Made by a program: the position numbers and the translations under genes. A stretch of 64,000 nucleotides of DNA, taken from Eledone cirrhosa (lineage: Eukaryota). Shown one piece after another: positions 2,242 to 59,650 of the stretch (its first letter is position 1; each line of letters starts with the position of its first letter). The notes beneath the pieces were generated by a model. It searched no databases, was not told the origin of the DNA, and worked only from the letters and a program-made list of their open reading frames with translations. The DNA lies in assembly GCA_964016885.1 (NCBI GenBank), contig OZ024743.1, forward strand, positions 241,428,001 through 241,492,000, read 5' to 3'.

Positions 2242-2282
2242 CGGTGCTGACGATAGCTAATAAGCTTGAAACTAGTACATCG
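2242..2282 (+). ncRNA. Minimal type I hammerhead ribozyme (family B)
   Basis: CGGTG-CTGACGA-TAGCT aata AGCTT-GAAA-CTAG-TA-CATCG; stem I still pairs despite two differences from the mirror copy. Confidence 0.75.
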
Positions 2283-2570
2283 TTCCTTTGTCAGTGTTGA
2301 ATAAAAGGGCAACGATGGTTGCTAAACACTGTACGGCTTAATTCGGGATGTTTGTTTACAAACAAACCGAGCATTATAATAAATGTTCGGTGAATCCATA
2401 CGTACATATATATATATATATGTGTGCATGCATGTATATATATGCATACTACTGTACATCTGTATACATATATGTATGTACGTATACATACTTATATTTA
2501 AGTAACAGCCGTACTAAGAGTGAGAAATGAAATTTCGTTTCATTTTTTCCATATATATATTACATATATG

Positions 2571-2740
2571 CAAGGTGCCCCAAAAGAACGTATAATACAC
2601 TTTCATTTGAATGCTATTCAAATCTGTGTACATTTTTGGGACACCCTGTATATATATATATATATATATTCACGCACAGGGTGACCCCCAAAAATGTATA
2701 CACACATGAACAGCATTCAAAAATGAAAGTGTATACATTC
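2571..2740. mobile_element. Two ~80-bp Tc1/mariner-like MITEs (2571-2649; truncated inverted copy 2677-2740)
   Basis: Imperfect TIRs CAAGGTGCCCCAAAA / TTTTTGGGACACCCTG followed by TA; second copy starts CAGGGTGACCCCCAAAAATGTA. Confidence 0.55.
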
Positions 2741-3092
2741 GGATCCAGCTGTCTAAAGGACTGGAGCTCACCCATCGGGTCCTGACTCTTTTCATCATAT
2801 TACCCACTCTACTACCCTAAGTATTGAGTAATCTTACCACACCATCTTTGTTGTTTACATATATATATATATACACACATATATATATATATATACATAT
2901 TTCATATATATATATATATATATATATATATATATATAACGAATGAGGTGTGGTAAAGAACCAGATGGACCATATCGCACCAGAGTGCTCAATACTTAGA
3001 GTAGTAGAGTGGGTAATAGGGAAAAGTTTAACCCCGACGGCAGAGCTCAAGCCGTTTCGACGGCTATTTCTGAAATACTCCAGAAATTGTTC
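2740..3092. mobile_element. Two copies (2740-2855 +, 2938-3092 -) of a short (TA)n-associated repeat also at 17205-17395 and 26885-27045
   Basis: Shared GAGCTC...ATTACCCACTCTACTAC.CTAAGTATTGAG block. Confidence 0.6.
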
Positions 3093-3165
3093 CTATATAT
3101 ATATATATATATATATATATAAATATATATATATATATATATATATATATATATATATATATATA

Positions 3166-3575
3166 AATTAATAAAAACAATGACTAAAAACAAAGAAACA
3201 GTTCCTTATATTAAAAAATCCATCATTTTACGATCGTTTCTAGGATATATATGTGTGTGTTGGTATGTATATCATATAGATCTATGTAAAAATGTTACAA
3301 ACTATCAGAGGGAATATACATACCTACACATATATATGGTGTTTTCAAAAATAATCATATATATCCTAGAAACGATCGTAATCATATATATCCTAGAAAC
3401 GATCGTAAAATGATGAATTTTTTAATATAAGGAACTGTTTCTTTGTTTTTATTCATTGCTTTTATTAATTTATCTTGACTCTGTTTTCCTGTGATTTTCA
3501 TCGAAAAAATATTTGAATACATCTCTTTTCATGATATTTGGATTATATTGAGTTCTTCATACGGATTGGACGCTA
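3166..3575. mobile_element. Fold-back element (family C), arms ~3166-3252/3385-3471, ~100-nt right extension, internal 27-bp tandem duplication
   Basis: AAAGAAACAGTTCCTTATATTAAAAAAT inverted at ~3420-3445; GAAA-CGATCG-TA half-HHR present, CUGANGA half not found. Confidence 0.75.
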
Positions 3576-4164
3576 CCGTATATTTTTGGTAGATTTATCT
3601 ACACACACACACACACACACACACACACACACACACACACACACACACACACACACACACATATATATATATATATATATATATATATATATATATATAT
3701 ATATATATATATAAATATATATATATATATATATATATATATATATATATATATAGAGAGAGAGAGAGAGAGAGAGAGAAGAATGATAGAGAGACAAACA
3801 TACACATAGAAAGATAGATAGATAGATATGTTAGCGCCATTTCTATCAGTTTGATGTTAAAAACCACACATTTTTTTCTATACGTGGGTATTGACATCTA
3901 GAAGGACATTAGAACTTTTAGCTGACGTAAATATACATATGCACAGAATTTCCTTTTTATAATGTAACTGTACGCGAACAATCACAGATATACAAACACT
4001 CCCCTAAACATCTCTATACATGCAAGCAACCACTCAGTGTTATGTACTGTTTGTCCTTAAATGCACTATATCCGATATTAATGCATACACACACACAGAG
4101 ACACACACACACCCACAAACACAAATACACACAAATACACACACTCATATATATATATATATAT

Positions 4165-56018: not shown

Positions 56019-56903
56019 TAGGGAGAAGTGTTTAGACGGGGTCCGTATTTGTTAATAAAGTAAGATTCCTTGCTGGGTGTGGGTGGCATTATCTTTAAAT
56101 TTGTAGAGGTGAAAGATTCTGAAGTTGGGATGATTTTGGGCGGCACAGGTATCAATGTGTTCACTCAGTGGTATTTTCCTGTATTCCCGTATTTTAATTT
56201 GGGATCTATAGACAGTCATGCGTTGGCGGAGGCTGTTTTTGGTCTGGCCTATGTAGTGTTCTCGACAACCTGAGCAAGTTAATACATATATTAGATTTTC
56301 TGATGCGCATGTGAAATTGTGTTTTACTATAAAACGTTGTCCTTCTTTGAAATAGAATTCCGAACCCTCTATTAGGTTCATGTATATGCCACAGTTGGGT
56401 CTATTGCATTTTTTTACTGTGGGTTTCGTTGTTGTGGTTGGCAGTACTTTGGCATGTGTTAGGTTGTTTTTCATTGACTTAGATTGTCTTTTGCTCTTTA
56501 TGATATCGTGTGTTCGTAGGATTTGGTTCATTCTATGGTCCTTTTTCAACACAGGGATGTTCTGGAGGATGGTGTCAAAGGCCTCATTTTTGAGAGGGTT
56601 GTGTGTGGAGATGTATGGAAGAGCTTTTAGTTTCGGTTGATTTACTTTAGGATGTCTAAGGTCCTGGGTAATGAGTTTTAGGGCACGTTGGATTCCATTG
56701 TCAATTAGTGATGCAGGGTAGTCCCTGCCTATGGGTGTGTCCTTTAGTTCTTGTAGCCGTAAGTAACAGGTGTTTTTATTGGAGACTATAGTACAGATTC
56801 TCTTGGCTAAGTTGTAGGGAATATTAATTTTAACGTGTCTAGCGTGGCAAGTGTTGAAAGGAAGATATTGCTTGGAGTCTGTGGGCTTGTAGTATATGTC
56901 TGT
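56019..56903 (-). pseudogene. Neptune-like PLE fragment: RT thumb, Cys-rich linker, GIY-YIG
   Basis: DIYYKPTDSKQYLPFNTCH...IPYNLAKRICTI; KCNRPNC...FTCASENLIYVLTCSGCREHYIGQTKNSLRQRM...LSEH. Confidence 0.9.
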
Positions 56904-56938
56904 ATATATATATATATATATATATATATATATATATA

Positions 56939-57205
56939 CAGTGGTTACTTGGTCTAAAATATTGGGCTTACTTTTTTCATATATATATGTTTATGAAAAT
57001 ATTTATTTTTTGTTGGAGAAGGTAAGATATTTTTCCGCAAAAATCTGATTGCACATTTTTGTTTCCATTTGTTGTGCTTGCATTGTTTTGTTTCTATTTT
57101 TTGAAAATGTTTATTCATTATAAAAATTAAATGATAGCCTTCTATATGTAGGTGGGCCCCTTTCATCTCCTGGCAACCAATATTTTTAGACCCTGTCTGC
57201 CACTG
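56939..57205. mobile_element. MITE with ~28-bp TIRs in TA repeats; second copy 59668-59898
   Basis: CAGTGGTTACTTGGTCTAAAATATTGG / CCAATATTTTTAGACCCTGTCTGCCACTG. Confidence 0.75.
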
Positions 57206-57729
57206 TATATATATATATATATATATATATATATATATATATATATATATATATATATATATATATGTATATATATATATATAATAAAGATTAGTGTATT
57301 CATTTATGCATGCAAACATACATATATAGACACACACGCACAAGCTCACAAACACACACTCGCACACACACACGCACGCACACACACACACACACACACA
57401 CACACACACACACACACACACACACACACACACATATACAACACACACACACACACACACATATATATATATATATATATATATGTATAATGCCAAGCAT
57501 CCGAAATTTGAATCTAACTGACATGCAAAAACATACATATATGAATAAGGTAAGCCTAAATCATAGTAGATTCAGATATCCCACCGAGAAAGAGAGAGAG
57601 AGAGAGAGACGGGGGGGGGGGGGGAATTAGGGGCAACATAAATTAAATATTAATTACAGGTTAAAATATAGTCTAGACAGGTGAGAAACAAAACGAGGAT
57701 GTAGTTTATGTAACACCCAAACGATATAG

Positions 57730-58171
57730 AAGTCGACCTTAAGTAGGAGAAATAACATTAAGAAAGACATGAACGACACGCCATCATTTTGTTTTGAAAA
57801 TTCTGAAAGTAGGTTCATGATTATGAATTTTCAAAAGACTTTCGTAGTTGTCTCAGTGGACTAGATGTAGGTACCAGAGAGGCTGGAGATCCTGGCCTTT
57901 AGTTCAATCCTAGTCGACAGCTACATTTCAGTTTTTATTTTACATCCCATAGAAATAAAACTGAAAAGGTTTACCGGGAATTCTATTCCTAAACAGGATC
58001 GAACTTCAGACCAGAATCACCGCCGTCTATGATTCCCCAAATGGGCCGCCAGGACTGTTACGGAAGTGCAATGAAAATTAATAATTATAACCCTACTTTC
58101 AAAATCAAAGTTAAAAGATGTGCTGTCGTTCATGGCTTTCCTAGAGCTATTAGTCATATTTAGGGTCAACT
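57730..58171. other. Old diverged fold-back containing two convergent tRNA-like units; second copy ~60284-60734
   Basis: GAAAGACATGAACGAC/GTCGTTCATGGCTTTC arms; GTAGTTGTC...GTTCAATCC...GACAGCTAC (57844-57924) and a minus-strand homologue with GTTCGATCC; oligo-T runs at the centre. Confidence 0.6.
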
Positions 58172-58344
58172 TGTCAATCTTCTGGCTCTTTGGTAACAAC
58201 CTAATTATTCCTATGTGTGTTTAACTCTTAAATTAATTTAATTTGATTATTTTAACAAACAAATAATATATATATATTATACTGTACCGATTGTGTTGTT
58301 ATTTCTGTTTACCTTCTACATACACACACACACGCACACACACA

Positions 58345-59650
58345 CCACTTTGGCTCCCCTGGACATTCCGCCCACCACCTCACAGACTGTGGCCTACTCC
58401 AATGCTATGGAATACCCGCCACCCGGTCGAACAACGCACAATCTTCACCCTACAGACCCACACACTCCCCGACCTGAACTCCCCACCCCTATTCCTTTAG
58501 CCTTCGACCCCCACACATCCCCCACTAACACCACTAACACACTCCTCCTTTTGACCCCCCCCCCAACTAACAATACTAATACGAACACACACCAACACAC
58601 ACACACCCACACCCACACCTACGTACACCACCCACTTACACACCCAACCACCACTAACCCCCACTTCACACCCGCATTCAACCCCTCCCCCTCCATCTTT
58701 CACATCTACCCATCCTCTCCCCTGTCCACCGCACCTGCGCACACACAGACACACAGTCCTCACCACATACAGACCATTTCTTCACCTGTCATCCTCCTCT
58801 ACTGCTATCTCTTCACCCTGCCTTGACCCTCTGACCACTTCCTGTTGCGCGCGCACCCCACATCTCTCCACTTCCGACCACCACAACCAATGGATTCCAC
58901 ACCATCGGTCATAGATCCAGCTATCCTCTCTACAACATGAGAAATATCCAACACAAATATCGCACACTCCACGGAACTACCTTAGAAACTTACCCACGAA
59001 AAAACACTCACATTTTTTTTCGAGCTACGCCATCTACATCCACACCACGTATAAACACAAACACACACGTGCGCACCCCCACCACATATACACACTCAGC
59101 CTCCGGAATCCCCCCCCCCCCATTCTGACCCCTCTCCATCCACACGCACGCACACGCACGCACACACCGACTTACACCCCACCCCACGCACACACCTTTT
59201 CCTGAATATGGAACCTCGTTCTTCCCCCAACTCGCACATTCACATACACACACACACACACACACACGTACACCTACACCAACACACAAACACCACCTTC
59301 AGCCCTCCCCGCTCGGACCCCCCTCCTCCCTCTCCCACACTCCACCCGCCACCACCCCAACACACCTCAAACCCTTCCACCACTTGTTTATTTTTATGTT
59401 TATTTTTATGTTTATTTTTATTTTTATATGTACTTCTAAAAAAATTGTTTTCCTCCCCCCCTTTCCTAAATGTCTTCCCCCCACCCCACCCCACAAACAC
59501 ACCCTCGGAACTCTCCTCCTCTCCACTGTTCTCCTGATGAAGGGCTTATGCCCGAAACGCCCCCCCCTCCACTCTCAAAAGCGTGAACCTAATAAACACT
59601 TATTTGTACTGTGTCTCTTTTCTGTTCCCATCTAAGTTTTAACTAACTAT
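58345..59650 (+). mobile_element. 3' part of family I PLE with GIY-YIG tail and decayed HHR (59534-59559)
   Basis: VEQRTIFTLQTHTLPDLN; UTR homologous to 18960-19771; CTGATGA-A-GGGC ttat GCCC-GAAA-CG. Confidence 0.85.

Follow-up and report, generated by a model that had tools for sequence, protein, structure and literature searches.

A 64,000-nucleotide stretch of Eledone cirrhosa DNA (contig OZ024743.1, positions 241,428,001 to 241,492,000 of the forward strand; the whole stretch is called the window below) contains hammerhead ribozyme motifs of 11 families in which both halves of the core are present, and in seven of these families (A, B, E, F, G, H and I) stem III is a perfect palindrome. 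We consider it probable that these type I hammerheads belong to the 3' ends of Penelope-like elements from several families and of small non-autonomous tandem units, and that they carry an inherited palindromic design for cleavage as dimers on tandem transcripts. The window is microsatellite-rich animal DNA, and Mollusca form the majority of the nearest Atlas cluster of one open reading frame (ORF) remnant found in it. Coordinates of the motifs, units and associated remnants are collected in Table 1.

Palindromic stem III in the hammerhead families

The window was searched for hammerheads with a descriptor scan, and 40 block-shuffled windows served as the control. There were 22 matches in the window versus 2.55 per shuffled window, and at scores of at least 22 there were 12 versus 0.15. 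A perfect palindrome was present in 11 of the 22 window matches and in none of the approximately 100 matches found in the 40 shuffles. At the family level, seven palindromic families of 11 correspond to a binomial P of 1.5e-8 when an even length and two central pairs are required, or of 0.01 if one central pair suffices; in both calculations the families may not be independent. The palindromes are real and well above chance.

For D1 and I the descriptor assigned a wrong, overlong stem III and a hand parse was used; F, D2 and the first A site were missed by the descriptor and were likewise parsed by hand. Candidates at 24373 (+) and 61848 (+) were dropped as lacking stem I or truncated. The low-scoring matches at 36583 (-), 49651 (+), 54753 (+), 56262 (+), 60775 (-) and 61378 (-), and the match at 1022 (+) in its long-stem-II parse, were taken as chance or misparsed. 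When Rfam was searched with E-values up to 1, no hammerhead appeared among the 150 matches listed of 168, and the rows listed were microsatellite-driven matches to microRNAs. Short hammerhead variants like these may be missed by the Rfam models.

Complete type I hammerheads were found four times in B, twice each in E, G and H, and once in F; each has the core, stem II, a palindrome and the cleavage base, and its stem I is at least 5 bp long. The core boxes CUGANGA (or its U3-A8 covariant) and GAAA, together with a UH cleavage site, are present in B, D, E, F, G, H, I, N and the first A site, and the second A site, J and K have one core change each. Stem I is open-ended, with 5 to 9 bp in B, D1, E, F, G, H, J and N and at most 3 bp at the first A site and in D2, I and K. 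The eight palindrome strings, those of the seven families and of the half-motif C, each occur directly after GAA in the window. Six of the eight begin with AC and end with GT, so the strings are not wholly unrelated, and their description as unrelated sequence in the initial annotation was overstated. The central letters and the lengths (4, 6, 8 and 10 nt) vary from one palindrome to another.

The claim that a perfect palindrome runs from A15.1 to U16.1 in most families holds for seven of the 11, with the qualifications that C is a half motif, that A is decayed and that the I copy at 59534 has a broken palindrome. For family C, a CUGANGA box was sought upstream of all three GAAA-palindrome halves and none was found; C is therefore not a verified hammerhead, and is at best a truncated one. 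The A string, ATATATAT, follows GAA at four places in the TA-rich window, two of them without a core. It should be noted that the A sites, at 1022 and 1767, precede the range of 2242 to 59560 given in the initial annotation.

Table 1. Hammerhead motifs, repeat units and associated ORF remnants in the window
Feature	Coordinates	Strand	Stem III	Remarks
A site 1, decayed hammerhead	1018..1068	+	ATATATAT	inverted mate near 803-881 with deletion
A site 2, decayed hammerhead	1758..1820	+	ATATATAT	A9 to U; no BLAST match to site 1
B hammerhead	2078..2120	-	ACTAGT	
B hammerhead	2241..2283	+		inverted partner of the 2114 copy
B hammerhead	22258..22300	-		
B hammerhead	22731..22773	+		within the 421-nt unit
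C 3' half alone	3229..3240	-	ACGATCGT	GAA + ACGATCGT + A; lacks 5' core box
C, two further 3' halves	3369..3407	+		in a 27-nt duplication; lack 5' core box
D1 hammerhead	7321..7365	+	AGAACT	4 of 6 positions self-pair
D2 hammerhead	20809..20846	+	AGAACT	decayed stem I
D2 hammerhead	25132..25169	-	AGAACT	decayed stem I
E hammerhead	17600..17645	-	ACAGATCTGT	
E hammerhead	17831..17876	+		inverted partner
F hammerhead	20253..20342	+	ACTACGTAGT	U3-A8 core variant (TTGATAA)
F inverted copy	19911..19991	-		cut within 5' core box
G hammerhead, downstream tandem copy	23154..23237	-	ACCGCGCGGT	
G hammerhead, upstream tandem copy	23643..23726	-		
G 3' half	23834..23865	+		in inverted truncated copy
H hammerhead	54428..54498	-	ATGCGCAT	
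H hammerhead	54559..54629	+		inverted partner
I minimal hammerhead	19650..19681	+	ACGT	stem I of 2 bp
I 3' half	54271..54287	-		cut by TA run
I older copy	59534..59561	+	ACGC (broken palindrome)	no stem I
J (51.5-kb motif)	51498..51571	+	ACCTCTGGT	U4 to C; 9-bp stem I
K hammerhead-like motif	17209..17300	+	19 nt, near-palindromic	core one base short
K 3' half	3033..3072	-		cut by TA run
N hammerhead	28041..28122	+	21 nt, non-palindromic (4 bp + 13-nt loop)	U3-A8 core; 8-bp stem I
C-terminal ORF remnant	6851..7120	+		upstream of D1; nearest Atlas cluster GIY-YIG domain protein (0.95)
ORF-end remnant	25436..25612	-		upstream of D2; 18/38 residues identical to D1 remnant, E 3e-7
Broken reverse-transcriptase remnant	18361..18813	+		upstream of I; Atlas neighbors HTH_animal (11-14% of members), RVT_1 (11%)
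B unit	22438..22858	+		direct repeat at 421-nt offset, 127 nt repeated
F unit	19989..20575	+		about 590 nt; head-to-tail in contigs of two other organisms
G unit	23233..23721	-		489 nt between two same-strand hammerheads

Computed pairing of stem III within and between copies

The computed cost of closing stem III as a monomer hairpin is about +5 kcal/mol for B and D and about +4 kcal/mol for A and H, and a hairpin is impossible for the 4-nt stem of I; overall, stems of 8 nt or less cost +3.7 to +5.0 kcal/mol or cannot form. The monomer stems of E, F and G (3 bp closing a 4-nt loop) are near neutral, at +0.6, +0.8 and -1.9 kcal/mol respectively, and the non-palindromic J and N, at -0.6 and -1.1 kcal/mol, lie close to these values. 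By computation, stem III is too weak as a monomer in A, B, D, H and I and borderline in E, F and G; this is untrue for K, in which stem III forms a stable monomer hairpin (-5.4 kcal/mol).

A self-duplex of two stems III is 12.6 to 19.9 kcal/mol better than two hairpins in A, B, E, F, G and H, and about 9 kcal/mol better in D. Family G is the only one with same-strand copies close together in the window, and when both hammerheads of this tandem were forced, the double hammerhead was computed at -168.6 kcal/mol versus -155.8 kcal/mol for two single ones, a gain of 12.8 kcal/mol; the 10-bp stem III between the two copies also forms in the unconstrained fold. These values support the earlier suggestion that two hammerheads pair through stem III. 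All other pairs are inverted, which puts the partner on the opposite strand, so that a transcript would give a fold-back and not a double hammerhead.

Families with a non-palindromic stem III

Families D and J had been listed as the exceptions to the palindrome, and both are confirmed as such; two further ones, K (17212, +) and N (28049, +), had been missed. N is well formed and is present in one copy in the window. The first eight letters of its stem III are those of E, and N may be a monomer-type derivative.

In family D, the six letters AGAACT are common to D1 and D2, and stem II of D1 differs from that of D2. Variation over F and D2 in public sequencing runs was taken from the 40 differences listed of 184. 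In a restriction-site-associated DNA sequencing (RAD-seq) run, 16,579 of 279,063 reads (86 start places) differ from the window at 20841, which leaves AGAACT as the majority form of D2; in a second run from that organism, the difference at 20841 accounts for 18,180 of 558,314 in contig depth. The minority changes seen at positions 20841, 20842 and 20844 are alike in depth and are apparently linked; together they give AGATTT (followed by A), which could pair fully as a dimer through G.U pairs. In one contig of organism G this form predominates, at 14.2 of 17.9. Since AGAACT is the majority form in the runs and is common to D1 and D2, a reading of D as a decayed palindrome is weakened. The consensus of D therefore makes it a genuine exception, and its dimer would have two A.A mismatches at the center.

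The expectation that the palindromes belong to the family consensus was checked for F and D2: the F palindrome is without substitution in organism C, and the majority form of D2 is non-palindromic. The F contig of organism C differs from the window by 11 substitutions, none of them in the core or palindrome, with gaps that are not all placed; two other public pieces over the F motif have 12 unlisted differences each, and variation there is possible.

Element context and tandem units

Remnants of ORFs were found upstream of D1, D2 and I (Table 1); the Atlas assignments of the D1 and I remnants come without E-values and are leads. D and I are taken as Penelope-like, and these upstream remnants are putatively of GIY-YIG or reverse-transcriptase type. 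Inverted truncated partners accompany the first A site, B, C, E, F, G and H, and the centers of inversion fall outside the hammerhead motifs. For 19 of 20 motifs, a (TA)n run follows downstream at a distance of 5 to 240 nt, in a window that is itself TA-rich. At 56055-56900 (-) there is also the end of a Penelope-type ORF; it has CxxC motifs and weakly matches GIY-YIG (E 0.001, short of the Pfam cut-off), and the window scans detected no hammerhead downstream of it.

The units of B, G and F are non-coding, with one hammerhead each and 1 to 1.5 units per site (the B repeat is partial), and from their sequences they look like non-LTR retrozymes (LTR, long terminal repeat). In length, B (421 nt) falls within the retrozyme range of 150-450 bp, and G (489 nt) and F (about 590 nt) are longer. 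For F, a 621-nt contig of organism C runs from 20298-20560 into 19989-20323 with a terminal overlap of 30 nt; the junction and the overlap imply a unit that closes on itself after about 590 nt. The identical junction is present in a contig of organism G. The cyclic contig may represent tandem DNA or circular RNA. Another tandem duplication, of about 600 nt, lies between TA runs at 21145-21973, and no hammerhead was detected in it.

These observations can be accommodated in a single scheme. The self-complementary stem III would have been kept so that, once a tandem array is transcribed, two copies from one family, carried on a single transcript, could pair into a double hammerhead, and cleavage by this structure would cut out a unit-length RNA. 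Such an RNA may then be circularized and copied by the Penelope reverse transcriptase; the non-autonomous tandem units probably depend on the machinery of Penelope-like elements for their mobilization. For stems III of 4 to 8 nt a dimer is probably required, and for the 10-nt stems of E, F and G it would be favored and probably not required. The different palindromes would represent one inherited design, the letters of which have drifted by paired changes. Most copies in the window are truncated, inverted or decayed relics.

Several observations weigh against this scheme. Four of the 11 families (D, J, K and N) are non-palindromic. The free fold of the G tandem, at -174.7 kcal/mol, is more stable by 6 kcal/mol than the full double hammerhead, and it is without stems I. 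A Pfam search of the D1 and I remnants gave no match, and the sequence upstream of E and H is too short to tell which type of element ended there. As for the units, the folding z-scores of the F, G and B RNAs are -5.9, -6.1 and -6.6, and two of the 16 stretches used as controls, which were taken from 61 that qualified, reach -5.6 and -6.1.

Spread in public sequences and alternative explanations

A metagenome scan for the hammerhead core plus the E 10-mer returned at least 124 loci; as the scan selects for the palindrome, it reports the spread of the E stem III and not its frequency. Stems I and II also form in 24 of the 124 listed loci, and by eye these have about 12 groups of stem II. An upstream frame ending in CxxC...CxH is present in six of 38 loci (the 24 and 14 near misses) and in part in three more; Pfam gave no match in seven frames from public loci, nor in one further frame from the window. 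Judged by sequence, the wide spread of the E palindrome fits inheritance within a clade. In the locus pairs L002/L003 and L007/L008, two same-strand E-type hammerheads lie about 2.4-2.5 kb apart, a distance that a full Penelope-like element would be expected to give.

The same loci bear on the proposal that each family evolved its palindrome independently, under selection for cleavage solely when two hammerheads meet, so that RNAs or circles with a single hammerhead survive. The palindromes do differ in length and in central letters, the stems of 8 nt or less form no stable hairpin, and a regulation that cuts multimers and spares circles was already proposed, along with the palindromic helix III and the dimer, by Cervera 2014 (PMC4209133). 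However, the exact E 10-mer recurs in loci of many stem II groups, the upstream CxxC...CxH frame resembles that of the Hydra clade of Penelope-like elements and fits inheritance within a clade, and E, F and G close a 3-bp stem alone. Moreover, Cervera and de la Pena 2020 (PMC7229834) describe cleavage of coral and mussel retrozyme monomers, at approximately 0.8 and 0.1 per minute respectively, with circles accumulating nonetheless, and a requirement for dimers in axolotl motifs. We regard independent selection as improbable. Cleavage solely when two hammerheads meet, as asserted in the initial annotation, is not supported for E, F and G, given their near-neutral 3-bp stems and the published invertebrate monomers that cleave; the repeated selection invoked there is not supported either, because a constraint inherited from a common ancestor would give an identical pattern.

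It is also conceivable, at a slightly lower probability, that stem III acts as a family-specific self-recognition code, in which palindromes of 8-10 nt would suffice to pair two separate RNAs or circles, an RNA would be cut solely on meeting its own kind, in proportion to its own level, and the D stem would be a new interface built on two central A.A mismatches. The D subfamily proteins are 47% identical over 38 residues and AGAACT is kept in both. Such a code, if true, would give the elements a built-in feedback on their own RNA.

Also improbable is pairing in trans, by which the palindromes of 8 to 10 nt would join separate RNAs or circles, so that cleavage would track the level of a family's own RNA and the families would be kept apart. 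The computed self-duplexes of C, E, F, G and H, at -12 to -22 kcal/mol, are in line with it; between families, the strongest pairing reaches -6.1 kcal/mol within this group of five and -7.6 kcal/mol for G with J. Yet orthogonality of this kind arises automatically from any divergence of palindromes, and one 10-mer is common to many families in the public contigs. Under the inherited design for dimer cleavage in tandem, weak cross-family pairing implies that read-through over different families would give no active dimers.

That the palindromes are by-products of inverted-repeat insertions, of TA-rich sequence or of protein-binding sites in the DNA, with no ribozyme meaning, might be suggested by the abundance of ATATATAT in the window, by the missing 5' core box of C and by the many inverted pairs, but it is highly improbable, and is disfavored for B, E, F, G and H, given that the palindromes run exactly from A15.1 to U16.1 in motifs with a core and stems I and II, that none occurred in the shuffles and that the inversion centers lie outside the motifs.

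Relation to known hammerheads and elements

The motifs resemble the Penelope hammerheads of PMC4209133 in type I topology, in the extra base after A9 and in the palindromic helix III, and also in the occurrence of many families per genome, mostly as single truncated copies, with inverted pairs 100-700 bp apart. The U3-A8 variant seen here in F and N is reported there from Schistosoma. Figure S3 of that paper includes molluscs, gives differing palindromes of 4, 6 and 10 nt and states the consensus as 'GAAAN Palind NU H'; the dimer constructs of the paper show low activity. In the section of its alignment examined, ACGT was the sole palindrome common to both sets, and the searchable file yielded no octopus entry. 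Unlike the hammerheads described there, B, E, G and H have the G10.1-C11.1 pair replaced, and D is non-palindromic. Varied palindromes in Schistosoma, Aedes, Nematostella and Xenopus, with a 10-bp dimer stem drawn, were presented by Perreault 2011 (PMC3088659, Fig. S8); there the palindromes vary across species and the dimers are hypothetical, whereas here they vary within one 64-kb window. Lunse, Weinberg and Breaker (RNA Biol 14:1499), according to its title and two reviews, also deals with a short palindromic stem III, association with Penelope and cleavage as dimers, and one review already raises convergence of the dimer design as a question. A 2020 review still calls the in vivo role of Penelope hammerheads a mystery.

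The B, G and F units share with the metazoan non-LTR retrozymes of PMC7229834 a non-coding head-to-tail arrangement with one type I hammerhead per unit and no LTRs, as well as co-occurrence with Penelope-like elements, and they may also share the self-paired fold. They differ in unit length (421-590 nt versus 150-450 bp) and in having 1 to 1.5 units per site. The layout of Penelope-like elements described by Craig et al. 2021 (PMC8557442), namely 5' truncation, an inverted partner and (TA)n insertion, is matched in the window by the truncated inverted partners and downstream TA runs. By text description (section 11 of that paper), elements of the Hydra clade have hammerheads, (TA)n and a CxxC/CxH motif at the endonuclease end, like the E-type public loci; unlike them, the E copies in the window are without an ORF. 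The E 10-mer was not found in the one supplement of PMC8557442 that was searched. A literature search with mostly open coverage, subscription journals lying largely outside it, returned no paper on octopus hammerheads or cephalopod retrozymes of this kind.

Dimer cleavage and varied palindromes of 4 to 10 nt are already published (Cervera 2014, Fig. S3; Perreault 2011, Fig. S8). The new material is local and comprises additional members, three retrozyme-like units, two motifs with a U3-A8 core, and the conserved mismatched stem III of D. As the principle is already published, the main value of the window lies in its compact natural panel from one genome, with stems III of 4, 6, 8, 10, 19 and 21 nt. 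Such a panel could locate the point at which dependence on dimers ends, and could serve to test cleavage between separate molecules by long palindromes. The units of 421-590 nt would extend retrozyme-like elements to the source lineage.

Other features of the window

Other mobile element remnants are present. Between 36700 and 49800 (41-49 kb included) lie LINE remnants, nested or in tandem, that carry endonuclease, RVT_1 and zf-RVT domains; there are at least two copies, each of which ends near (ATT)n runs. A frameshifted reverse-transcriptase-like remnant with a CxxC...HxxxxC motif, probably of another non-LTR element, lies at 35500-36640 (-). A SINE-like repeat of about 200 nt was found in several copies, partly arranged in tandem, at 13350-14800, 16030-16230, 30190-30400 and 62700-62900. 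Two long G/T-rich arrays, at 7966-11363 (27-nt unit, 94 copies) and 32390-33421 (108-nt unit, 9.5 copies), have open frames that read as Thr-rich or Gly/Ser/Thr-rich. Finally, ten perfect TTAGGG-type hexamers form an interstitial telomere-like run at 31232-31293.

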